Source: Eubacteriales bacterium (GTDB taxonomy: Bacteria > Bacillota > Clostridia > Oscillospirales > CAG-272). From it: a DNA stretch of 58,071 bases. Shown piece after piece: positions 6,273 through 56,649 of the stretch. The stretch is from contig JAZQCR010000031.1 of assembly GCA_045546375.1 (NCBI GenBank), forward strand, positions 1-58,071, written 5' to 3'. The notes under the pieces were generated by a model that was given only the letters and a program-made list of their open reading frames with translations, did no database searches and was not told the origin of the DNA. Made by a program: the position numbers and the translations under genes. Each line of letters opens with the position of its first letter. Within the stretch, counting starts at the first letter, position 1.

Positions 6273-8045
6273 ATGAAGAATTTATGCAAGAGTCTGTTAG
6301 CCATACTGCTTGCCTGCGCCATGCTGATACCCGGTGTGGTAGTCATGGCAGACGAGGAGAGGCTGCCAGTGGACTTCACTGACGTGGATACGGACGACTG
6401 GTTCGCCTTTTACGTTGACTATTGCAGTAAGAACGGTCTGGTGAACGGAATGACCGAGACCACCTTTGAGCCGAACACCGCTCTATCCCGCGCTATGTTC
6501 GTCACCCTCCTATATCGCTTCCAGGAGGCGAAGGCTACCGAGGGGGCGCAGATGCCCTTTACCGACGTGACAGATGGCCACTGGGGAAGGGACGCTATCC
6601 TATGGGCTTATGAGAACGAGATAGTCAACGGCATGACTCCCACCACCTTCCAGCCCGATGCTAAGATCACTCGTGAGCAGATGTGCACCATACTCTGCCG
6701 CTTTGCTGACGGTATGGGGTACGCTATGCCTGAGGCGGATCATACCTCACCCTTTATTGACGAGGATGAGATCGCAGAGTTTGCCTACGACTACGTGTAT
6801 ATATGCTACGCCGCAGGCATCGTAAACGGTATCACCGAGGATAGCTTCGGCCCGAGGCAGAATGCGACCAGAGCTCAGGCGTGCACCATCCTAAAAAGAT
6901 TTATCAACTTCGCTACCTCTGAGTATACCGAGTGGGAGGAAGAGAACGGTAAGGTGAGCTTCGAGTACACCGATAAGTACGGTGTATACGCGGAGGGCTA
7001 TACCTTAAGCGATGAGGACGGAAACGTCACGGAGTACTATTACGGTGACTATGAGGGCTTCTGGTGTCAGTCCCGTTATCAGTATGACGCTAACGGGAAT
7101 ATGACTCGAGACAGCTACGTAGAGTGCCGTGTGGATGACGTGTTCAAATACACTGAGAATTATACCTATGACGAGGACGGTAACCTCCTGAAGACCGAGT
7201 ATTCCGACTCGGACGGATACGAGTATACCGAAGCTCGCAGCTATGACGAGAAGGGCGAGCTGATCAAGCGTGAATATGAGGACGGCTACGGTTATACGGA
7301 GACTGAAAAATGGACGTATAATGATGACGGTAAGCTGACCGAGTATATAAACGAGTTGGGATACGGTGAGTACTCCGAGGTAGTACGCAGACTGAGAAAC
7401 TCCTACGATTCCTTCGGCAACCCCGTGCAGTCGGTGGTCGAGGAGGACGGCCTGGAGGTTCTGTCTGTTGACTACGGCTTCAGCAGGGATGCGCAGACCG
7501 GCATCTCCCATATGGCCAGCGCATACATCACCGTCGAAGGTACGAACATCATACAGGTACTGACGGGCGGACATGACGAGGACGGCAGAATAACCAAGTA
7601 TTCTATTATCGAGGAAGGTAACGTCATCTCGGTGGAGCAGGGCTTCGTCGACGGCGCGCTGAGAGAGGTCAAGTATACTGTGGGAAGCGAGGACGGAGAC
7701 TTGACCATGGTCTTCGGCTATGACGAGCTCGGCGCGGTATCAGACATGTGCTTGAATCAGGGGGATAATACCCTGTCCGTACCCGAGGGCACCTTCACCG
7801 GTCCCGACGGTGTGCCCGAGAGCTTCACTATGGCTTCGGACGGTGTAGAGTACACTGCCACCGTGGACTATGGGGCAGGCACCGTCACCGTTAGCGACGG
7901 CACGACTACCGAACAGTTAGACGAGGAGGCGGCGGGAGCTATCATGTTTTCACTGGTACTGCTTCACGGCGTGTGCTCAGAGTATGAGGAGTTTACCTCC
8001 TACTCCATCATCGACGCTATATCGGAATATCCGATAGTATTGTAA
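6273..8045 (+). CDS. S-layer homology (SLH x3) protein with YD-like repeats, paralog 1
   Basis: Signal peptide; FTDV...GLVNG...F.PN..SRA SLH motifs; YDANGN/YDEDGN/YDEKG repeats. Confidence 0.85.
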   Translation: MKNLCKSLLAILLACAMLIPGVVVMADEERLPVDFTDVDTDDWFAFYVDYCSKNGLVNGMTETTFEPNTALSRAMFVTLLYRFQEAKATEGAQMPFTDVTDGHWGRDAILWAYENEIVNGMTPTTFQPDAKITREQMCTILCRFADGMGYAMPEADHTSPFIDEDEIAEFAYDYVYICYAAGIVNGITEDSFGPRQNATRAQACTILKRFINFATSEYTEWEEENGKVSFEYTDKYGVYAEGYTLSDEDGNVTEYYYGDYEGFWCQSRYQYDANGNMTRDSYVECRVDDVFKYTENYTYDEDGNLLKTEYSDSDGYEYTEARSYDEKGELIKREYEDGYGYTETEKWTYNDDGKLTEYINELGYGEYSEVVRRLRNSYDSFGNPVQSVVEEDGLEVLSVDYGFSRDAQTGISHMASAYITVEGTNIIQVLTGGHDEDGRITKYSIIEEGNVISVEQGFVDGALREVKYTVGSEDGDLTMVFGYDELGAVSDMCLNQGDNTLSVPEGTFTGPDGVPESFTMASDGVEYTATVDYGAGTVTVSDGTTTEQLDEEAAGAIMFSLVLLHGVCSEYEEFTSYSIIDAISEYPIVL

Positions 8046-8047
8046 AG

Positions 8048-8074
8048 AAAAACTCCGCCTTGGCGGAGTTTTTT
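8048..8074 (+). terminator. Intrinsic terminator
   Basis: aaaaactccgcc-tt-ggcggagtttttt. Confidence 0.8.
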
Positions 8075-8134
8075 CGTTGCAATCCGTGAGAATTGATGAT
8101 ATAATTATCTCACCAAGCAGAAAGGAAAAAAGAA

Positions 8135-9952
8135 ATGAAGAGTTTATTTAAGAGTATGTTAGCTGTGCTGCTGGCGTTGGCTATGCTTATCCCCGGCGGC
8201 TTTGTCTTTGCCAAGGAGCCGGTGGACTTTACCGACGTGGACGCAGACGACTGGTTTGCGCCCTACGTTGACTATTGCTCGGTGAACGGTCTCGTTAACG
8301 GTATGACCGCCACTACCTTTGAGCCGAATACGTCACTTTCACGTGCCATGTTCGTGACCATTCTTTGCCGTTCTATGAAAGCGTATGCGCCGGAGGGCGC
8401 AGAGATGCCATTTACCGACGTTCCCGAAAAGCACTGGGCAAAGGACGCTATACTCTGGGCGTATAATTCGGGTATAGTCAACGGTATGACCCCCACCACC
8501 TTCCGGCCCGACGGGCTTATCACCCGTGAACAGATGTGCACCATCATCTGCCGCTTTGCGGATGCTGCGGGCTATGATATTCCTATGGCTGAGAGCTACG
8601 GTATCTTTGCGGACGAGGATGAGATATCCGACTGGGCGTATGACAGTGTATTCGTATGCTACGCCGCAGGCATCGTAAACGGTATCACTGAGGATAGCTT
8701 CGGCCCGAAGCAGAATGCTACAAGGGCTCAGGCCTGCGCCATCCTCCAGCGCTTCTACCGCATTGCCACCCACGAGTATAACGAGAGTGAGGAGCAGGAC
8801 GGCAAGGTCACCTTCACCGAGGCCGATAAGTTCGGTGTGTACGCTACCGGCTACTATTTATACGATGAGAACGGCAATCAGCTCGAGTATTACTACGAGG
8901 AGGCCGGCTTTAATAAGAAGGTCGAATACAAGTATAACGAGCTTGACTTACTCATAGAGATAAAGTACGTCGACTCGGACGGATACGAGACCCTTAGCGT
9001 CAATACCTATGACGAGAACGGATCACTTCTTACTAACAAGTATACCACCTCCGACGGATACTCCGACGAGACGACCCATAAATACGATGAGAGCGGCAGA
9101 ATGACGGAGAGTACCTACTCCGATTCCGACGGCTACTCTAACACCGAGAATTATGCCTATGACGAGATGGATAATATCATCGGATACAGGTTTGCTAATT
9201 CCGAGGGAGAATGGTATGACGAGGAATTTGAGTATGACGGTAAGGGCAACCTGCTGAAGCATAAGTACGTGGATTCCGACGGGTATGAGTATACCGAGAC
9301 CTATGCATATAACGAGGACGAGGAAAAGACCGAGTATAGTTTCGTCGATTCCGACGGATATACCGAAAGCGAAAAGTATACCTACGAGGGAGGCCGCCTT
9401 GTAAAGGCTGTAAAGAAGAACAGTGACGGGGTAGACGTCGAGATAGATATGGAGTATAAGGGCGGTAACCTCGTCAGCGCCAAGAAGAAGGACGGCGGCC
9501 AGCCGGTCATCGACATCACCCAGAAGTTTAACGAGGACGACTATATCAGTGAGTTCGTCATTAAGGAGTACACCGACGGCAGAGACGACTATATGATCAT
9601 CCGTTTTGGTGAGAGCGGTGAGTATTCCTCGGCAGAGTACTTTGACAGCAAGTATAATGAGGAGACCGGAGTAGGTGCTACCTATTACTTTGATGAGAAT
9701 TCCTTTAACGGCCCGGATGGTGCGCCTTCGCACTTTAAGCACAAGATAGATCTCGAGGATTACGCTATGCAGAACGTCACCTTCGACTATGACGAGGGTA
9801 CGGTCTCTGTGACGGATGCTTACGGCGGCAATTTCGATACCATCGACAGCAACTTAGGACAGAGCATGCTGCTTCCCGCTTTGGCTGTGCAGGGCTACGC
9901 TCAGTATATTGCACCCATGTACGATACCGACGTTATGTTTTATTTCTTTTAA
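8135..9952 (+). CDS. S-layer homology (SLH x3) protein with ~25-aa YD-like repeats, paralog 2
   Basis: Same architecture as 6273; repeated DSDGY...YDE.G units; duplicated upstream promoter/RBS. Confidence 0.85.
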   Translation: MKSLFKSMLAVLLALAMLIPGGFVFAKEPVDFTDVDADDWFAPYVDYCSVNGLVNGMTATTFEPNTSLSRAMFVTILCRSMKAYAPEGAEMPFTDVPEKHWAKDAILWAYNSGIVNGMTPTTFRPDGLITREQMCTIICRFADAAGYDIPMAESYGIFADEDEISDWAYDSVFVCYAAGIVNGITEDSFGPKQNATRAQACAILQRFYRIATHEYNESEEQDGKVTFTEADKFGVYATGYYLYDENGNQLEYYYEEAGFNKKVEYKYNELDLLIEIKYVDSDGYETLSVNTYDENGSLLTNKYTTSDGYSDETTHKYDESGRMTESTYSDSDGYSNTENYAYDEMDNIIGYRFANSEGEWYDEEFEYDGKGNLLKHKYVDSDGYEYTETYAYNEDEEKTEYSFVDSDGYTESEKYTYEGGRLVKAVKKNSDGVDVEIDMEYKGGNLVSAKKKDGGQPVIDITQKFNEDDYISEFVIKEYTDGRDDYMIIRFGESGEYSSAEYFDSKYNEETGVGATYYFDENSFNGPDGAPSHFKHKIDLEDYAMQNVTFDYDEGTVSVTDAYGGNFDTIDSNLGQSMLLPALAVQGYAQYIAPMYDTDVMFYFF

Positions 9953-12473: not shown

Positions 12474-14150
12474 ATGAAAAAGTTTGATGTACACACACAT
12501 CTCGGATACAGCAAAAGCGAATCCGATCTGCTTACGCACTTAGAGGAAGCGGGGCTGTACGGCGCCTGCGTTTTCTCTTATCCGCCGACAGAGCACAATT
12601 CTGCGATCGGAAAGGATTTTGATGCGAGACTTGAGCACGTGCTCGGCTTTGTGTCAAAGGACAGAGAGCGCCTTTACCCCGTGCTGTGGGTCCATCCCGA
12701 TGAGCTAAGTATCATCGATAATATCGACAAGGCCGTAGAGGCGGGCGTTGCGGCATTCAAGATGATCTGCAATAATTATTATGTCTATGAGGAGAAGAGC
12801 ATGGCCCTTGTCCGCAAGATCGCGGCCGGCGGCAAGCCTATCTTCTTCCATACGGGCATCCTGTGGGATGGGACGGTCTCTTCCGACTATAACCGCCCCT
12901 TGCACTTTGAGCATCTTATCGGAGTGGAGGGACTGCGCTTCTCCATGGGGCATTGCTCCTGGCCGTGGATAGACGAGTGCATCGCACTGTACGGTAAGTT
13001 CTTAAATACCCGTTCCAGATGCAACACGGCGGATATGTATTTCGACCTGACACCGGGCACTCCCGAGATCTACAGAGAGGAGCTTATCACTAAGCTTTTC
13101 ACCGTGGGCTATGACGTTTCGGCTCATATGATGTTCGGTACGGACTGCAATGCCGAGGACTACAACAGCGCCTGGTCTAAGAAGTGGCTGGATACCGACC
13201 GCAGGCTGATGGATAAGCTGGGCGTTTCCAAGGCGTGCAGAGAAAACCTCTATTATAATAACCTTATGGAATTTTTGGGTATATCCGAGAGTGGAAAAGA
13301 GATGGCGATCCCCGAGTGCGACGACGCTAATGCGTGGAGCCCTGTAAACGAAAACGTAAGGGAGATCATTGAGGGATGGTATAAGAAGCTTGGCTTTGAC
13401 CGCTGTTATGACAGGGATTTCTACCGTGCTCTTGAGGAAATAAAGGTATCCGACGCGGTGAATATCCGCGAGTACGACAAGGGGTGCGAGGACGGACTTC
13501 GTAATCTGCTCTCCTTCCTATATATGTGTGAGGACGTGGCGGAAAAGTATCGCGAGATGGGCATTTCCGACGAGATACTCGTTGACACCCTGTACGATAT
13601 CGTTTTGTGGACGAGAAACTGGAGCAAGGTTAAGGGCCGCACCTACTTAGGTGAGCTTGGATGGCTTACAAACCACATGACGGGACGACTGCATAAGATA
13701 GGCAGACTTCAGTTCTGCCGCGGCAGATGCGATATGGATATCCCCGAGCTCGGCATTAAAGAGGGTGAGCCTATTTTAGAGATACATATCCCTGCCCGTG
13801 GGCCTCTCACAAGGGAAGAGTGCGAAGAGTCTATTGCCATGGCGAAGGAGTTTTACGCAAAATACTATCCCGACTACGATTATAAGTGCTTCACCTGCTC
13901 CTCCTGGCTTATGGACGGTACTCTTAAGGAGCTGTTGTCAGACGAGAGTAACATCATCCGTTTTCAGGATATGTTTACCGTTATCGGGCGGCACGAATCC
14001 TATTCGCTCTTGAAGTATCTTTTCGGTTGGGATACAAGACGGGAGAATCTTTCGGAGCGCGAGCCTACCTCCTCCTTTGCAAGGAAGGTCAAGGAGAGGG
14101 TGATGCAGGGGGGCAAGTTCTACTCTGCATTCGGTTATATGAAGAAATAA
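12474..14150 (+). CDS. Amidohydrolase_2 domain fused to DUF5596/GNAT-like acyltransferase domain
   Basis: N-half DVHTH, FFHTG, MGH, MFGTD; C-half IGRLQF, LEIHIP..GPL, CSSWLMD, SNIIRFQ. Confidence 0.7.
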   Translation: MKKFDVHTHLGYSKSESDLLTHLEEAGLYGACVFSYPPTEHNSAIGKDFDARLEHVLGFVSKDRERLYPVLWVHPDELSIIDNIDKAVEAGVAAFKMICNNYYVYEEKSMALVRKIAAGGKPIFFHTGILWDGTVSSDYNRPLHFEHLIGVEGLRFSMGHCSWPWIDECIALYGKFLNTRSRCNTADMYFDLTPGTPEIYREELITKLFTVGYDVSAHMMFGTDCNAEDYNSAWSKKWLDTDRRLMDKLGVSKACRENLYYNNLMEFLGISESGKEMAIPECDDANAWSPVNENVREIIEGWYKKLGFDRCYDRDFYRALEEIKVSDAVNIREYDKGCEDGLRNLLSFLYMCEDVAEKYREMGISDEILVDTLYDIVLWTRNWSKVKGRTYLGELGWLTNHMTGRLHKIGRLQFCRGRCDMDIPELGIKEGEPILEIHIPARGPLTREECEESIAMAKEFYAKYYPDYDYKCFTCSSWLMDGTLKELLSDESNIIRFQDMFTVIGRHESYSLLKYLFGWDTRRENLSEREPTSSFARKVKERVMQGGKFYSAFGYMKK

Positions 14151-14187
14151 GATCATGTCGGATGAGCCGTTTTTGTCTCAACCGTTG

Positions 14188-14196
14188 TGATATAAT
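14188..14196 (+). promoter_or_regulatory. Extended -10 promoter of the retron unit
   Basis: TGATATAAT ending 4 nt before the 5' inverted repeat at 14201. Confidence 0.65.
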
Positions 14197-14200
14197 TTTA

Positions 14201-14377
14201 GCGGAACATCAGAGCAAGTCAATTTACGTTGGCACCGTGGGCGGGTCGCCCTCGGGAAGCATACAGAAGATCTCGGGCTCACTTCGTTCGTACGAAGCGG
14301 CTATGCAGTATGAAAATGCCCACCTTGTGGGCCCGAATACTGCACCGCGCTCCGTGATTCACATTGTTTTGTTCCGT
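14201..14377 (+). ncRNA. Putative retron msr-msd non-coding RNA
   Basis: Terminal IR gcggaaca(14201-08)/tgttccgt(14370-77), extendable with G-U pairs; hairpins gggcg-ggt-cgccc (14239-51) and cttcgt-tcgt-acgaag (14282-97); long stem 14297-14348; lies immediately upstream of a retron RT. Confidence 0.7.
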
Positions 14378-14396
14378 GCAGGAGGGGAGAAAAGTA

Positions 14397-15326
14397 ATGG
14401 ATATAATAGTATATAAGGAGCTTTCCTCCCTTGCCTGCGACCTTGGCGTATCGGGGCATACCCTCTACGCCTTATCGAATCATATCGGTGCCCATTATAA
14501 AAAGGTGCTTATCCCCAAGGGCGGCGGAGAGTGCCGCGAGCTTCACGTGCCCGATAAGCTGCTTAAGACGGTACAAAAGCGCATAGCGGAAAGGTTGCTG
14601 ACCCTTGAGAGGGTATCACCGTACGCTACCGCCTACAGACCCGGTTGCTCGCCTATGGCCAATGCCGGTCACCATATGGGCGCTCCCGTGCTCCTTAAGA
14701 TGGATATAAGACGTTTTTTCGATCACGTGATCTACCCCGTGGTAAAGGAAAAGGTCTTTCGAGGGGAGCGGTATTCCGAGAGCAACAGAATACTTTTGAC
14801 ACTTCTTTGTATGTATAAGGACACCTTACCCCAGGGAGCACCCACCTCACCCGCCATCTCCAATATCGTAATGCGGGATTTCGACGACAGGGTAGGCGCC
14901 TGGTGTGCCGAGCGCGGTATACGGTATACCAGATACTGTGACGACCTTACCTTTTCGGGTGATTTCGACCCCGCGCCAGTTAAGGCCTTCGTTCGCGAAG
15001 AGCTGATAAAAATGGGCTTTTACCCTAATGATAGAAAGACGGTAGTCCTTCGTAACGGACAGAGAAAGACGGTTACGGGCATCGTCGTAAATGAAAAGCT
15101 GAATACCGCCTCCGACTACCGCAGGAGTCTGCGTCAGGAGATACGCTTTTGCAAAAGGTACGGCGTCGCAGATCATTTAAAGCACGTGGGTAAGGAAACA
15201 GTCAGCGTGCGCTCCTACCTTTCACAGCTTTTGGGCAGGGCGAACTACATCCTGCAGGTGGATAAGGATAACGCCGAGGTCAAGGGCTATAAAAGATGGA
15301 TAATCGAACAGTTCCGCGAGGTTTAA
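14397..15326 (+). CDS. Retron-type reverse transcriptase (309 aa)
   Basis: RBS ggagggg; IPK...R.L..P, NAGHH (region X NAxxH), KMDIRRFF, LPQGAPTSPAISN, RYCDDLTFS, TVTGIVVN (region Y VTG). Confidence 0.9.
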   Translation: MDIIVYKELSSLACDLGVSGHTLYALSNHIGAHYKKVLIPKGGGECRELHVPDKLLKTVQKRIAERLLTLERVSPYATAYRPGCSPMANAGHHMGAPVLLKMDIRRFFDHVIYPVVKEKVFRGERYSESNRILLTLLCMYKDTLPQGAPTSPAISNIVMRDFDDRVGAWCAERGIRYTRYCDDLTFSGDFDPAPVKAFVREELIKMGFYPNDRKTVVLRNGQRKTVTGIVVNEKLNTASDYRRSLRQEIRFCKRYGVADHLKHVGKETVSVRSYLSQLLGRANYILQVDKDNAEVKGYKRWIIEQFREV

Positions 15327-15351
15327 AAAGCGAGCATTTGCTCGCTTTTTT
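15325..15351 (+). terminator. Intrinsic terminator closing the retron unit
   Basis: aaaaagcgagca-tt-tgctcgctttttt overlapping the RT stop codon. Confidence 0.8.
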
Positions 15352-15469
15352 GCTTTTTGCGGTTGATAATGAAAAGTCAAAGTGCTATAATTATAGAAAA
15401 CGGTTGCTTTTTGTAACAAATTGAATTTTTTTGCGTCTTAATGAGTATAAAGACATTTTAGGAGAGAAG

Positions 15470-18400
15470 ATGCGTACCGACCGTATAAATATAAAGGTAA
15501 TTATGATCGCCCTGGTGCTCATAGGGGCGCTGCTCGGCGGCGTTTTTGCCGTTGATCTGATAGAAGACAGCGTGGGTATGCCCGTGTTCTATGAAGGAGA
15601 AATGCAGAATATCTGCGTGCGTGTCACCGAGGTCTGCTCCTCCAACAGAAGCATACTTATGACAGAGGATGTTCAGTACCCCGACTATATCGAGCTTTAT
15701 AACTACGGAGAGAGCTTTGACCTCTCCGAGCTTGGCCTTACTACCGATGCCGAGAACAAGGTGGAGTACGAATTTGAAGAGGGAGTCTTCGAGGCGGGCA
15801 GCTATATCGTGGTCTTCCTTGATGGCGTGGACGTCCCCTTCAGGCTTTCAAAGCAAGGCGGCGAGTATTTAGCGGTGGTATCGGGTGACGGTGTGGTTAT
15901 CGACAGCCTGACGACCCTTGCCATGGAGGGTGATGAAGTTATGCTCCGTGAAGAGGAGGGCTTTGTCGTTTCCCGCGAGGCTTCTCCCGGTTATCCCAAT
16001 ACCGAGGAGGGCGTGGCAGCATTTCTTGATTCTTCTGAAGGCAGGATGCCTCTTGTGATAAACGAGGTGTTTACGGCAAACAGTCACACTCTTCCCGACT
16101 CCTTCGGGGCTTTCAGCGACGTTATCGAGCTTAAGAATCTCGCCTCGGAGGAGGTGAGCACCGCGGGCTATTGTCTTTCCGATTCTGCCAAGGACCGCGC
16201 GCAGTACCCTCTGCCTGAGGTTACCCTTTTTCCGGGTGAGACCCTTCTCGTTTTCGCTTCGGGCGCCGACACCGTCACCGAGGACGGACAGATCCATGCT
16301 AATTTCCGCCTCTCCGAAGGGGAAGAGCTCATCCTTGCCACGTCGGGTAGATATAACTACCTGAAGATGGAGAAGTGCGAAACCGGATATTCTTTTTCCC
16401 GTAACTCCGAGGGAGGCTATGAGATAATGGCGGCCACCCCCGGCTTTGAAAACAGCGAAGCGGGATACGAGGAGTTTGCCGATAGCCGAATAAATAAGGA
16501 TAGTCCCATTATCATAAGTGAGTTGCTTTTCGCTCAGGATCAGACGCCCTATGGCGGCGCTCTGCGTGACGTTATTGAGATATATAACAGAAGCGATAAG
16601 CCCGTTTCCACCCGGGGCTATTACATCAGCGACGAGGAGGACGAGCCCTATAAGTTCCCGCTTCCCGTTATGACCCTTGAGGCAGGGCAGTGCACGGTGC
16701 TGTATGCTGAGGACGGAGAGGGGGATAACCTTTGCGGCTTTGCCCTTTCCACAGGTGAGTCATTATACCTTACCTGCCCTGACTATAGACGCACCGAGTT
16801 CGTTTCCTGCGCGCCTGCAGGCAGAGGGCTCTCCCGTAATTATCTTGAGGATAAGGGAGAGGCGGTGTACGTGTCCGCCCCCGTTTCCATAGGCTATCCC
16901 AATACACAGGCGGGTCAGCAGGCGTATATTTCCGCTATCCGACCGAATACGGTGGAGATAAGTGAGATAGTTTCCTCTAACAATATGTTATTCCCGGGCC
17001 CCTACGCCACCTACCACGATTTCATAGAACTGCATAACCGAGGGGACAAGGAGGTAACCCTCACGGGCTGGTACCTCTCCGACGACCCGAAGGAGCCGCG
17101 TAAGGGCTCTCTTGACGGAGTGGTCATACCGGGCGGAGGATACGTTGTTATAATTCTGTCAAGCGACGGTATCAACCTGCCCGACGGCTACCACACAGTG
17201 CCCTTCGCCATAAACGCATCGGGCGAGGAGCTCACCCTGTCAAAGGGTGATGAGATAATCGACAGCGTGTCTGTGCCCTCTTTGGCGCGGAATACCTCTT
17301 ACGGCAGAGCTTATGGGGCAGACGGCTTCTCTATCCTTTACGAGACAACGCCGAATCACCCTAATTCTGCAGGCAGAAGTGCGCCTACCCCGGAGCCCCT
17401 TGCCTCCAAGGCGCAGGGCGTCTACGGCGAAGGGCTCACCCTGGAGCTTTCGGGAGAAGGGGAGATATACTATACTCTGGACTGCACCGTCCCTACGGCC
17501 GATTCTATAAGGTATACCGAGCCCTTAAGGATAACGTCCACTACGGTGGTGCGCTGTATGGCCTTGGCCGAGGGCAAGGAACCCAGCAACGTGTGCGATC
17601 TTACGTATATAATAAACGAGGGGGACACCCTGGAGGCGGTGTCCCTGGTCACGGACCCCGATAACCTCTTTAATTACTATACGGGCATTTATGAGGAAGG
17701 CCCCAACGCCTCTCCGAATCATCCGCATTTCGGCGCTAACTATCATTTGAATACAGAGAAGCCTGCGTCGGTAGCCTTTTTTCCCGTTGAGGGCGAGGGC
17801 TTTTACGAGAATTGCGGAGTGAGGATGTTCGGCGGTTACTCAAGGGCTCAGCCCAAGAAGTCCTTTGCTTTGTTTTTCAGAAACGTGTACGGCGCCTCAT
17901 CCCTTGACTATCAGGTCTTCGAGGACGACCCTCTCGCTTCCTTTGAGGCGATAGTGCTTCGTAATACGGGTCAGGATTTCTACCGTTCATCCATGCGTGA
18001 CGCGATGATCACGGATATGGCAGGGGACTACCTGGGGCTGGATGTGCAGAAGAACCGTCCCGTGGTCCTTTATCTGAACGGCGAGTTCTGGGGCATCTAC
18101 TTTATAAGGGAAAAGGTAAGCGAGAACTACGTGGCGGGGCACTATAATGTGGATCCCGACGAGACCATCATCGCGGGTGGCAGCGGATGGAGCTCAGGCA
18201 CCTTCCGTCAGATACTCACATATTCTCAGCAGAATGATATGTCACAGCCCGAGCACTACGAATATATATGCTCTCAGATCGACGTAGATAATTACGTTGA
18301 CTACATCGCCGCCCAGATGATAATAGGTAATACGGATCTGGGCAACGTAAAGATGCTCTACTGTAATGGCAAATGGCGCTGGATAATGTACGACGTGGAC

Positions 18401-18790
18401 CAGTCCTTTTCGGGCTCGGGGGTCAACGTGATATATAAGTACCTTTATCTCTTCGGGCCGGATACAGGCGATATTACGGTGAATCTTGTGAATATGCTTG
18501 TGAAAAACGATCAGTTCAGGGCCTCGCTCTTAAAGGAATTTGCCTATCAGCTTGAGAACGTCTGGACACCCGAGAACGTCAACCGTTATATCGACGATTA
18601 CTTAGCGAAGATACTTCCCGATATGCATAGGGAATGCGAGCGCTGGATGAAGGATTACGGCTCCTGGGAGCGCTCGGTGCAGAGCTTGCGAAATTTCATA
18701 GCCGACCGTGAACACTTCATCATCCAACAGCTTAAGGAGCAGTTTATCTTAAGCGACGAGGAGATGAGGGGCTACGGCTTTAATATATGA
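15470..18790 (+). CDS. Membrane-anchored CotH kinase family protein with four lamin-tail-like domains and a chitobiase/FN3-like domain
   Basis: Repeated (I/V)xE...D.IEL.N...G..LSD units; IYYTLDCTVPT; PKKSF, LNGEFWGIYFIREK, D.GN, WRWIMYDVD; RBS ggag before ATG 15470. Confidence 0.85.
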   Translation: MRTDRINIKVIMIALVLIGALLGGVFAVDLIEDSVGMPVFYEGEMQNICVRVTEVCSSNRSILMTEDVQYPDYIELYNYGESFDLSELGLTTDAENKVEYEFEEGVFEAGSYIVVFLDGVDVPFRLSKQGGEYLAVVSGDGVVIDSLTTLAMEGDEVMLREEEGFVVSREASPGYPNTEEGVAAFLDSSEGRMPLVINEVFTANSHTLPDSFGAFSDVIELKNLASEEVSTAGYCLSDSAKDRAQYPLPEVTLFPGETLLVFASGADTVTEDGQIHANFRLSEGEELILATSGRYNYLKMEKCETGYSFSRNSEGGYEIMAATPGFENSEAGYEEFADSRINKDSPIIISELLFAQDQTPYGGALRDVIEIYNRSDKPVSTRGYYISDEEDEPYKFPLPVMTLEAGQCTVLYAEDGEGDNLCGFALSTGESLYLTCPDYRRTEFVSCAPAGRGLSRNYLEDKGEAVYVSAPVSIGYPNTQAGQQAYISAIRPNTVEISEIVSSNNMLFPGPYATYHDFIELHNRGDKEVTLTGWYLSDDPKEPRKGSLDGVVIPGGGYVVIILSSDGINLPDGYHTVPFAINASGEELTLSKGDEIIDSVSVPSLARNTSYGRAYGADGFSILYETTPNHPNSAGRSAPTPEPLASKAQGVYGEGLTLELSGEGEIYYTLDCTVPTADSIRYTEPLRITSTTVVRCMALAEGKEPSNVCDLTYIINEGDTLEAVSLVTDPDNLFNYYTGIYEEGPNASPNHPHFGANYHLNTEKPASVAFFPVEGEGFYENCGVRMFGGYSRAQPKKSFALFFRNVYGASSLDYQVFEDDPLASFEAIVLRNTGQDFYRSSMRDAMITDMAGDYLGLDVQKNRPVVLYLNGEFWGIYFIREKVSENYVAGHYNVDPDETIIAGGSGWSSGTFRQILTYSQQNDMSQPEHYEYICSQIDVDNYVDYIAAQMIIGNTDLGNVKMLYCNGKWRWIMYDVDQSFSGSGVNVIYKYLYLFGPDTGDITVNLVNMLVKNDQFRASLLKEFAYQLENVWTPENVNRYIDDYLAKILPDMHRECERWMKDYGSWERSVQSLRNFIADREHFIIQQLKEQFILSDEEMRGYGFNI

Positions 18791-18797
18791 GGACAGC

Positions 18798-19457
18798 ATG
18801 GCAGAAAGAACAGAAGAAAAATACCTTCTCGATATGGCGGAGTATTCCGCCATATCGGCGAGGATAAGAGCCGTGATGGCCGCCGACTCAAACGGAAAGG
18901 ACGGCGGCTACAGCATATCGTCACTTTACTTTGACGATCCTCACGACACCGCTCTGCGTGAAAAAGAGGACGGAGACGCGGTGCACGTTAAATACAGGGT
19001 GCGTACCTATAACGGCGAGGCGGGGTATATCCGCCTTGAGAGAAAAATAAAAAAAGGGCTAATTACCGAGAAAAAGTCCGCTAAAATAAGCGAAGGAGAG
19101 CTCGTCTCCATACTGTCGGGGGAGGGGCTGCCTGAGGGAAGCGTCGCCTTCGGTCTTTTCAGCGAGATGCGCTCAAGGCTGTTTTTGCCCGTAGTTACGG
19201 TGCGTTACGACAGAGAGGCGTACGTTTACCCGTCCCTCGGCGTGCGCGTCACCTTTGATAAAAACGTGGACAGACTGCCGCCCGACGCCCACTGCCTTTT
19301 CGGAAATAGTGACGGAGCCCTCCCCGCTATAGAGCGCGGTCAGGTCATAATGGAGATAAAGTATTCGGGACGGTGTCCCTCGTTTATCAGAAAATGTATG
19401 GGTGCGGGCTGTACACAGCTTTCGGTATCCAAATACGCTTTGGCAAGGAGAGTTTAA
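18798..19457 (+). CDS. VTC (polyphosphate polymerase-like) domain protein
   Basis: RTEEKY, ISSLYFD, KYRVRTY, LERKIK, YDREAY, RVTFD, MEIKY, SKY motifs. Confidence 0.85.
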   Translation: MAERTEEKYLLDMAEYSAISARIRAVMAADSNGKDGGYSISSLYFDDPHDTALREKEDGDAVHVKYRVRTYNGEAGYIRLERKIKKGLITEKKSAKISEGELVSILSGEGLPEGSVAFGLFSEMRSRLFLPVVTVRYDREAYVYPSLGVRVTFDKNVDRLPPDAHCLFGNSDGALPAIERGQVIMEIKYSGRCPSFIRKCMGAGCTQLSVSKYALARRV

Positions 19458-19458
19458 T

Positions 19459-20121
19459 ATGAGTATTTTTGACGCGATCAAGAAAAGCGTGCTGGAGGGC
19501 TTTTCCGCCCAGATGACGCTTGCCGACATTATTATTTCACTTGGTTCAGCCTTCTTGGCAGGGCTCTTTATACTGGCGATATACCGTCTTACACGCACGG
19601 GCGTTTCGAGAAACAGACAGATAGAGTCAACTCTTCTTTTGGTGACTCCTATCTCGGCGATGATAGTACTGACCATTACCTCTAACCTGGCGCTGTCCCT
19701 GGGTATGGTGGGTGCGCTGTCCATCGTGCGCTTCAGGACCGCCGTAAAGGACGCTTCGGATACCGCGTTTATGTTCTGGTCGGTGGCGTCCGGTATCACC
19801 GCAGGCGCGCACTTCTATAAGATAACGCTTATCGGCTGTATCTTCATCGGTCTGGTTGCCTTTTTGGTGTTAAAGCTTACCTCCGTAGGCGCTCGTCCCT
19901 ATCTTTTGGTCATTCGTATGAAGCCGGGGGCAAAAACGGACAAGGCGGAGAAGCACCTTGGCGAGAAAAGGATACCCTTCCGCCTTTCTTCCGTCGTCAG
20001 CTGTGACGCCTACGTGGAGGCTATCTACGAGGTGGCTGTATCCCGCTCGGGTGACGATTTGGTCGGTGTGATCACCGCTCTTCCCGAGACGGTCAGCGTA
20101 TCCCTTGTTGATTGCAAATAA
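19459..20121 (+). CDS. DUF4956 family membrane protein
   Basis: SNLALSLGMVGALSIVRFRTAVKD signature. Confidence 0.88.
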   Translation: MSIFDAIKKSVLEGFSAQMTLADIIISLGSAFLAGLFILAIYRLTRTGVSRNRQIESTLLLVTPISAMIVLTITSNLALSLGMVGALSIVRFRTAVKDASDTAFMFWSVASGITAGAHFYKITLIGCIFIGLVAFLVLKLTSVGARPYLLVIRMKPGAKTDKAEKHLGEKRIPFRLSSVVSCDAYVEAIYEVAVSRSGDDLVGVITALPETVSVSLVDCK

Positions 20122-55616: not shown

Positions 55617-55912
55617 AGGATAATTTCCAGGACGAGCGCATAGACAATCTCTTTAAGGCTATCCTCACACTTAAGAGTGTAGAGGAGTGCTACGACTTTT
55701 TTGAGGATCTTTGTACCGTGGCGGAGATAAGGGAGATGTCCCGCCGTCTGCACGCCGCAGTTATGCTTACCGAGGGACAGACCTACGCTCAGATAGCGGC
55801 GGAGACGGGTGTTTCCACCGCTACCATCAGCCGTGTAAAGCGTTCACTTCGTTACGGTAATAACGGCTATAAGGAGGCTATCGCCACCCTTACCTCCAAG
55901 GAGAGCAAGTGA
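55613..55912 (+). CDS. YerC/YecD family TrpR-related protein
   Basis: LFKAILTL...ECYDFFEDLCT...STATISRV. Confidence 0.9.
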   Translation: MKDNFQDERIDNLFKAILTLKSVEECYDFFEDLCTVAEIREMSRRLHAAVMLTEGQTYAQIAAETGVSTATISRVKRSLRYGNNGYKEAIATLTSKESK

Positions 55913-56649
55913 GTGAGGCTTATTCCGCCCTTGCACGTTGGTATGACGTGCTTGGCGACACCGTAGACTACGAGGGGTGGGCTGACAAGCTGACCTCTCT
56001 TTTCCCCGAGGGCGCAAGCCTTTTGGATATAGGCTGCGGCACTGGTAATATGACCCTGCCTTTAGCGCGCAGGGGCTACGATATGATAGGCGTAGACCTT
56101 TCCTGCGATATGCTGGCGGTTGCCCGCGAAAAGGCGATGGAGGCAGGACTGGATATCCTCTTTTTACAGCAGAATATGACCTGTCTTGACCTTTACGGCA
56201 CGGTGGACGGTGTTATCTGCGCCCTTGACGGTATAAATTATCTGCTGTCAGAGGACGAGCTGTACGCCTGCTTTGGCAGTGTGTATAAGTTTTTAAATCC
56301 CGACGGCAGGTTTGTCTTTGACGTGAATACACCCTATAAATTTCGTCATATTTACGGGGATAACCACTATATATTAGAGGATGAAGGGGTGTATCTCGGC
56401 TGGCGCAACGAGTACGACGAGGAAAGCGGCATATGCGACTTCTATCTCGATATGTTCTCGGAGGGGGAGGACGGCTCGTATGAGCGCACCTGCGAGGATC
56501 AGAGCGAGCGTTGCTACTCTGCAGATACACTTATTAAGATAGCGCAGGACTGCGGCTTTAAGGTAGAGGGCTATTACTCTACGCCCGACCGCAAAGAGCC
56601 TCGTGAGGACGACGAGCGCTGGTATTTCGTATTAAAAAAGGAAATTTAA
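55909..56649 (+). CDS. Class I SAM-dependent methyltransferase
   Basis: LLDIGCGTG, GVDLS, L.P.G.FVFD. Confidence 0.88.
   Translation: MSEAYSALARWYDVLGDTVDYEGWADKLTSLFPEGASLLDIGCGTGNMTLPLARRGYDMIGVDLSCDMLAVAREKAMEAGLDILFLQQNMTCLDLYGTVDGVICALDGINYLLSEDELYACFGSVYKFLNPDGRFVFDVNTPYKFRHIYGDNHYILEDEGVYLGWRNEYDEESGICDFYLDMFSEGEDGSYERTCEDQSERCYSADTLIKIAQDCGFKVEGYYSTPDRKEPREDDERWYFVLKKEI

Follow-up and report, generated by a model that had tools for sequence, protein, structure and literature searches.

What does a retron do when no effector gene stands beside it? This question is raised by positions 14188-15351 of a 58,071-nucleotide stretch of DNA from a Clostridial genome of the Oscillospirales (contig JAZQCR010000031.1, assembly GCA_045546375.1), which was analysed as a whole and is referred to as the window in the following. 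Here, a gene for a reverse transcriptase (RT) follows a structured non-coding RNA (ncRNA), and an earlier note on this DNA had read the unit as a self-contained, effector-less and possibly domesticated retron. Our analysis makes it very likely that the unit represents an intact stand-alone retron of the Ec107-like lineage (RT clade 2) that makes msDNA (multicopy single-stranded DNA), a judgement from sequence comparison which covers the identity of the unit and msDNA synthesis only. The window retron adds one member to a stand-alone Ec107-like lineage that is already published. The unit comprises a -10 box, a structured RNA of about 177 nt closed by inverted repeats, a ribosome-binding site, a gene for an RT of 309 aa and a terminator, all of which are present and lie within at most one base of where the earlier note had placed them:

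14188..14196, + strand: extended -10 promoter element, TGATATAAT, read from the sequence and without a -35 box; presumed promoter
14201..14377, + strand: retron ncRNA (msr-msd), 177 nt, matched by covariance model R1 (see below) with 128.5 bits over 14197-14381
14201..14208, + strand: a1 arm of the closing inverted repeat, GCGGAACA, from inverted-repeat scan and fold; all 7 pairs of helix 1 covary
14211..14212, + strand: invariant AG just past a1; G14212 is the candidate branching (priming) G, as judged from general retron architecture
14218..14255, + strand: msr stem-loops SL1 (14218-14233) and SL2 (14235-14255), minimum-free-energy helices with a conserved GxGUCG loop region
14269..14359, + strand: msd hairpin, predicted msDNA template with presumed limits; side hairpin 14283-14296, apical hairpin 14304-14344
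14370..14377, + strand: a2 arm of the closing inverted repeat, TGTTCCGT, from inverted-repeat scan, covariation and fold
14380..14385, + strand: ribosome-binding site AGGAGG, read from the sequence; in most homologues, the start codon likewise follows a GGAGG-like run
14397..15326, + strand: retron reverse transcriptase P0001, 309 aa, ATG at 14397, with NAGHH, YCDD and VTG; PADLOC RT_Ec107-like, Pfam RVT_1
15325..15350, + strand: intrinsic terminator over the TAA stop codon; 11-bp stem with 5 GC pairs, 4-nt loop, then the T-run TGCTTTTTGC

The closing inverted repeat is exact over 7 bp (14202-14208/14370-14376) and is extended to 8 bp by a G-U pair between G14201 and U14377.

A first line of evidence for the assignment comes from the RT. 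The best PADLOC model for P0001 was PDLC03739 (RT_Ec107-like) with an E-value of 8.8e-122 and 404 bits over model positions 7-305 of 307, followed by RT_III-A at 304 bits or less, i.e., 100 bits lower, and then by other retron RT types; all top 25 PADLOC matches were retron RT models. The retron models of NCBIfam also matched P0001, at scores below their cut-offs, and among the non-retron RTs of this collection the group II RT reached 54 bits (cut-off 300) and Drt2 52 bits (cut-off 390). The solved structures nearest to P0001 are those of the retron RTs Ec86, Kva2, Ec83 and Ec67. The best 120 protein matches listed were all full-length, with 302-332 aa and 58-87% identity, and the named ones among them originated from metagenome-assembled genomes (MAGs) of Clostridia. 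The earlier statement that the RT carries no fused domain is in line with Pfam, which recognized only RVT_1, and with the PADLOC match, which spans almost the entire model.

The retron motifs named in the earlier note, NAxxH and VTG, are present in the translation of P0001 as NAGHH and VTG. In an alignment of 34 homologues, N89, A90, H93, Y180, D182, D183 and T227 were invariant, and G228 was conserved to at least 90%. The catalytic box YCDD had been regarded as an oddity; it occurred in 33 of the 34 aligned homologues, the lone exception being P0049 with YSDD, and is therefore the normal catalytic box of the lineage, which is also found in the RT encoded between slmA and pyrE of Escherichia coli (see below). 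For RT-Eco5 (Ec107), the YCDD motif was already pointed out in the available text of a 2019 review (PMC6868368).

The second line of evidence is provided by the ncRNA. Relatives were collected from species-representative genomes (6 family loci), from relatives of the window's genome and from metagenomes, where 463 out of 596 candidate stretches passed confirmation and we retained the best 80. The 260 nt upstream of the RT genes formed 57 non-redundant groups, which were visibly alignable and shared the a1 arm, the invariant AG, two msr hairpins with the loop region GCGAGUCGC, a branched msd hairpin and the a2 arm. RNAalifold, applied to 35 ncRNAs of similar length, predicted a structure of 26 pairs, and compensatory changes occurred at 22 of these. 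The alignment columns A15 and G16 (14211-14212, 3-4 nt past a1) were invariant in all 35, as were the columns G47, G49, T50, C51 and G52 of the msr loop region. The covariance model R1 was built from these 35 Clostridial ncRNAs and run over 66 sources, i.e., 64 sources of the family and the distant Proteobacterial loci L007 and L008. A match immediately upstream of the RT, either full-length or truncated by the end of the contig, was obtained in 63 of the 64 family sources, including 28 of the 29 outside the training set, while L007 and L008 gave no R1 match. Three extra weak antisense matches all fell on the near-palindromic msd hairpin.

In the R1 alignment, 96.4% of the cells were paired, compared to 29-54% when the partners were slid, and none of 500 shuffles reached the observed values. 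Compensatory changes on both sides had occurred at 24 of the 26 pairs in this alignment, which is fitted to the model and hence favours the structure; the independent RNAalifold result agrees in direction. SL2 forms a 9-bp consensus helix in which 7 pairs covary, and consensus helices 3 and 4 (14304-11/14337-44 and 14318-23/14327-32) were 99% paired with covariation at all 10 pairs. Within the genome, the R1 search identified the window ncRNA as a single copy. Thus, a conserved and covarying upstream structure, for which the earlier note had proposed to search, exists among the homologues, and the call of a retron stands, as the RT groups with retron models and a covarying ncRNA adjoins it.

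The sole family source missed by R1 was locus L060. Its RT is 99% identical to that of locus L065, yet it lacks the ncRNA; when L060 (1062-1392) was compared with L065 (4700-5030), homology between the two began only 17 nt before the ATG, and the DNA upstream was unrelated. L060 represents either a chimera of metagenome assembly or a natural copy without ncRNA.

The model also connected the window retron to an element of E. coli. The genes slmA and pyrE are 36 bp apart in BL21(DE3); among 60 complete E. coli genomes sampled evenly, 4 carry an insertion of about 1.27 kb between them. In NZ_CP008697.1, this retron locus (L143, 1128-2384) encodes an RT of 319 aa that is 47% identical to P0001 over 276 aa (E-value 3e-88), with YCDD in both proteins. 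R1 matched the 190 nt directly upstream of this RT over the full model length with 33.8 bits (E-value 8.8e-8), whereas the Ec86-type locus of BL21, the negative control, gave at most 10.9 bits. BL21(DE3) had also been considered as a source of Ec107 and was rejected, as the only RT match there (879 kb; 197 bits) is to another retron RT; we take this RT to be Ec86, and it served only as negative control for the RNA model. The insertion between slmA and pyrE is labelled in RefSeq merely as 'reverse transcriptase family protein', and the ncRNA feature is not annotated there. We equated the element, the record of which does not carry that name, with Retron-Eco5 (Ec107) on the basis of the replacement of a 34-bp intergenic palindrome as published for Ec107, the location beside an orotate phosphoribosyltransferase gene and the motif YCDD (PMC7736814; PMC6868368; available text of both).

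Homology to Ec107 and general retron biology suggest how the window unit would operate. A single transcript would be initiated from the extended -10 element, with a presumed start near 14203, and would end at the terminator at 15350, carrying both the ncRNA and the RT message. The RT would bind the msr stem-loops and prime from the 2'-OH of the invariant G14212, the putative branching residue, beside the a1/a2 duplex, and the msd hairpin would be copied from about 14369 back to about 14265. The expected product is msDNA, a branched molecule of RNA and DNA roughly 100 nt in size, as demonstrated experimentally for the E. coli relative Ec107. The promoter element TGATATAAT was not listed by a consensus promoter scan because it has no -35 box. 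In 24 of 55 homologous loci, the 24 nt up to a1 contained a -10-like hexamer with at least 5 of 6 matches; among 55 control windows taken from within the RT gene, 5 did. Public sequencing runs contained only parts of the stretch, none of them with half of the sampled words. DNA contigs from three runs (85-99% likeness) extended across the boundary of upstream gene and ncRNA, and no contig skipped the retron, uncovered stretches in these contigs carrying no meaning.

The lack of an adjacent effector, as claimed in the earlier note, was borne out by the analysis of the neighbourhood. Pfam revealed no integrase, recombinase or defence gene among 20 open reading frames (ORFs) between 120 and 27581, and a PADLOC scan of 30 ORFs across the window matched only the RT and a partial mad2-like ORF. 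This ORF (246 aa, 55909-56646, + strand) matched PADLOC mad2 (mads_2) with an E-value of 3.8e-17 over model positions 272-404 of 492 only, and the match probably reflects a shared domain rather than a defence system. A search for direct repeats flanking the unit yielded only short chance or T-rich repeats. The earlier note had further considered that homologues might consistently carry an effector that was simply lost here. When up to three ORFs on each side were clustered (253 proteins from 57 non-redundant loci), the largest shared neighbour cluster was present in only 6 of the 57 loci, and the immediate neighbours in the window were without counterpart at any of the other 56.

The distribution of the RT is patchy. 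Of 40 related genomes, 3 contained a strong match (E-value <1e-100), and among 6 genomes of the same genus there was none; at an E-value of 1e-80 or below, the RT occurred in 18 of 301 genomes of the order, with one match each, spread over 10 of 30 families. Such a pattern is that of an accessory element, and 'domesticated' is therefore not the natural reading. In a comparison for an empty site, the 5-kb region had no DNA match in 5 genomes of the same genus. The upstream gene had no orthologue in 25 relatives, the best match showing 41% identity over half the length and the others 31-33% identity to the C-terminal part. As even the genes on either side lack conservation among the relatives, no empty site could be located, and an insertion is thus neither shown nor dated.

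For an estimate of selection on the RT, we used those gene pairs from 56 loci whose products are at least 72% identical. Thirteen pairs with dS of 0.9-2.7 had dN/dS ratios of 0.04-0.14, and the one pair with a dS of 0.12 had a ratio of 0.28. The values of 0.29-0.60 for three more, almost identical pairs are based on very few changes, and seven pairs were saturated in dS or had a dS of zero. Strong purifying selection thus acts on the RT; taken with the compensatory changes of the RNA, it speaks against a remnant in decay. Regarding its nature, it is about an even call whether the window retron is a horizontally moving accessory element, most likely one related to phages.

A number of observations weigh against an intact and active retron that is complete without a partner. 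The 201-nt leader folded alone reached -71.3 kcal/mol (z = -2.1), and 3 of 200 shuffles folded equally well; the single sequence therefore exceeds its shuffles by a modest margin only, which is suggestive, not decisive. No retron family of Rfam matched the ncRNA, all matches being unrelated with E-values of at least 0.26. It is the covariation among homologues, more than the single-sequence fold, which supports the predicted ncRNA structure. The only evidence from an RNA library is a metatranscriptomic contig of 214 nt (run X20) from a close relative, which corresponds to 14120-14333 with 6 mismatches and 2 gaps and comprises the last part of the upstream gene, the spacer and 130 nt at the start of the ncRNA. 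It is a weak hint at transcription and no proof; its start lies upstream of the proposed promoter, and it may represent read-through or DNA carry-over. According to the available text of a census preprint, RT-DNA production is highest in clades 2, 9 and 10, and high production within clade 2 is confined to certain subtypes. The genome of the window holds one RT and one ncRNA of this type and is 83% complete, so that a partner may be encoded elsewhere. Finally, a minority of the relatives is accompanied by, or fused to, candidate partners.

The first group of such relatives carries a protein of about 450 aa with the domains DUF2201_N and DUF2201 (metallopeptidase-like and VWA-like) beside the retron, in 6 of the 57 loci (L027 2333-4773; L037 3380-4747; L043 73-1215; L034 458-814; L072 4318-5658; L080; the genomes G127 and G225 were noted alongside). 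In 4 of the 6, it is adjoined by a MoxR-like AAA ATPase, and in four loci the stop codon of the DUF2201 gene precedes the start of the RT by 215-251 nt. In an RT tree of 56 rows, from which the truncated locus L069 and redundant loci were left out, all six fell into the half that contains the window (6 of 28 rows, versus 0 of 28 in the other). There they are scattered, requiring six changes, at least three of which are forced by well-supported branches; the basal split of the tree is weakly supported. Of the genomes of the order, 6 of the 18 with the retron and 26 of the 283 without it possessed DUF2201 (Fisher p 0.007, for related genomes that are not independent). A literature search pairing 'retron' with 'DUF2201' found no paper.

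The second group consists of seven fused proteins (P0121-P0127) of 553-588 aa, in which an RT_Ec107-like part of about 300 residues is followed by about 250 C-terminal residues. Two architectures are each kept between diverged proteins, the C-terminal parts showing 52% identity between P0121 and P0123 and 72% between P0125 and P0126. Pfam identified no domain in them except YjeF_N in P0124, PADLOC nothing below an E-value of 0.036 and sequence searches of the PDB nothing meaningful, and none of the retron loci collected contained a relative. In the ESM Atlas, one fused domain gave no usable match and the other only matches below 0.9, including a cluster annotated as UDG (the annotation is on 12% of its members), which is a lead only. 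The YjeF_N extension of P0124 may be a read-through into a housekeeping gene; the fused C-terminal domains are possible effectors in an otherwise effector-less lineage. Neither the DUF2201 pair nor the fusions alter the reading of the window locus as a stand-alone retron.

How would such a retron act? The earlier note had offered a partner encoded in trans or an msDNA that does something else, and this was supported in part: the retron, its self-contained organization and the missing adjacent effector hold, while the alternatives are not new. The same two, unknown trans effectors or a different mechanism, are posed in the available text of Mestre 2020 (PMC7736814). We rank an accessory, probably phage-related module acting with an unlinked or host factor first, followed by effector-free action, then by a physiological role and, both being unlikely, by a remnant or a role of a flanking gene.

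A dedicated effector encoded in trans, or an unlinked or host-encoded factor, is a tentative explanation. It was raised for the orphan branch by Mestre 2020, and the sister group, type III-A1, uses PRTase (phosphoribosyltransferase)-like effectors (PMC7736814, available text). In addition, genes may be missing from the incomplete genome of the window, and the rare relatives with adjacent or fused modules indicate that the RT-ncRNA core can pair with proteins. However, in the genome as assembled (83% complete), five PADLOC models of PRTase_III-A gave only motif-level matches of 16-21 bits on housekeeping PRTase motifs, no DUF2201 was found, and the C-terminal domains of the fused forms have no relative save the housekeeping YjeF_N; an effector from a family not yet described is conceivable. 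As far as the available text of Mestre 2020 goes, most orphan-retron genomes are likewise without homologues of known retron-associated proteins (PMC7736814).

Similarly tentative is the possibility that the msDNA or the RT-msDNA complex is itself active, e.g., with phage proteins as the target of a decoy or sponge, or by infection-triggered aberrant cDNA synthesis. Retrons of this class are abundant and conserved, with no gene recurring next to them, and both the purifying selection on the RT and the covariation of the ncRNA are in favour of such a role. Outside the retrons, two-part defence systems of an RT plus an ncRNA exist, namely DRT2 and DRT9. On the other hand, published abstracts indicate that every retron of solved mechanism uses a protein effector. 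Ec107 is omitted from the published phage tests, as far as their available text shows, and the literature searched yielded no defence phenotype for it and no function, partner or phage phenotype for the Ec107-like class.

A physiological or regulatory role apart from phages, for example in starvation or stationary phase, appears unlikely. The expression of Retron-Eco5 is strongly enhanced by phosphate starvation or entry into stationary phase, according to a review citing Herzer 1996 (PMC6868368, available text), but a patchy, single-copy and horizontally scattered occurrence is typical of accessory or defence genes and not of core regulators. That the unit is an inert, decaying remnant of a type III-A-like tripartite retron, is very improbable, although the available text of Mestre 2020 regards it as plausible that this branch lost the associated protein (PMC7736814): the ORF is uninterrupted and retains every catalytic and retron motif, dN/dS is 0.04-0.14 family-wide, the ncRNA has been maintained through compensatory changes and the best 120 matches listed are all full-length proteins.

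The poorest candidate, a flanking gene acting as effector, concerns an amidohydrolase/N-acyltransferase fusion (12474-14150) and a CotH/LTD protein (15470-18790; LTD, lamin-tail domain), which are located on the same strand as the unit, 50 nt upstream and 120 nt downstream, respectively. Acetyltransferase toxins exist in other systems. However, we regard this role as hardly credible, since neither gene has a counterpart beside the other 56 retron loci or matches PADLOC, the upstream gene is without orthologue in the 25 relatives searched, and the downstream gene has a strong promoter of its own at 15363-15391, after the retron terminator. This promoter precedes a run of three genes directly downstream of the retron (15470-20121, + strand): one for the CotH kinase-like protein, which has 1106 aa and four lamin-tail domains, one for a protein with a VTC domain and one for a DUF4956 protein. 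Further upstream in the window, tandem paralogues of 590 and 605 aa (6273-9952, + strand) each possess three S-layer homology domains with RHS-repeat matches.

The earlier note had treated the effector-less organization as unusual; it is already in print. A branch of RT clade 2 with stand-alone msr-msd-RT cassettes was described by Mestre 2020, with only 2 of 59 such cassettes adjoining a PRTase (PMC7736814, available text), and our phrase search of the literature on orphan, stand-alone or effector-less retrons found this paper only. In the available text of a 2026 survey of SPIRE (mSystems), 192 of 1,286 candidates are assigned to clade2_Ec107like, 93% of these being from Bacillota and 92% host-associated, which places Ec107-like retrons among the most abundant groups in host-associated Bacillota; a recurrent accessory architecture is scored absent (PMC13712802). 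The window locus alone adds little, as its YCDD, the lack of an effector and the lack of a mobile-element context have all been published. An explanation for a retron without linked effector would extend the tripartite model. If the effector-free reading were true, Ec107-like retrons would be complete two-part systems and a mechanistically distinct class of retrons rather than tripartite systems after gene loss, and the abundant radiation in gut Clostridia would be the main natural reservoir of this class. The pair of MoxR-like ATPase and DUF2201 protein, present in about a tenth of the relatives, and the rare RT fusions are possible handles on the class.

Among known systems, DRT2 and DRT9 resemble the window unit in that an RT and a structured ncRNA occur without a separate effector gene, which is a functional analogy only. 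They belong to other RT clades, P0001 scoring only 52 bits against Drt2 (cut-off 390), and do not have the msr-msd architecture closed by a1 and a2. Type III-A1 retrons are closer: their RT is related, RT_III-A being the second-best model for P0001 at 304 bits, and in the available text of Mestre 2020 type III-A1 and the stand-alone branch share a common node (PMC7736814). They differ by a PRTase-like effector and a winged-helix protein, neither of which was found beside the RT of the window or detected in its genome. Retron-Eco5 (Ec107) is more similar still, in that both are stand-alone ncRNA-RT units of about 1.2-1.3 kb without effector, integrase or flanking repeats, both RTs carry YCDD, share 47% identity and match the same PADLOC model, and the ncRNAs are homologous, with UAG after a1, the GCGAGUCGC loop, a UGUA/UACA msd helix and a2. 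The differences concern the host, a Proteobacterium as opposed to a gut Clostridia MAG, the genomic contexts, which are unlike, and the length of the RT, that of the window being 10 aa shorter; moreover, msDNA has been demonstrated for Ec107 (PMC6868368, available text), whereas the window copy is known from its sequence. The closest counterparts are the clade2_Ec107like retrons of Bacillota. They share the RT model, the ncRNA type and the lack of recurrent accessory genes, their homologous loci stem from gut and rumen MAGs and metagenomes, as do near-identical pieces of the window from a sheep-gut run, and nothing substantive separates the window retron from them.

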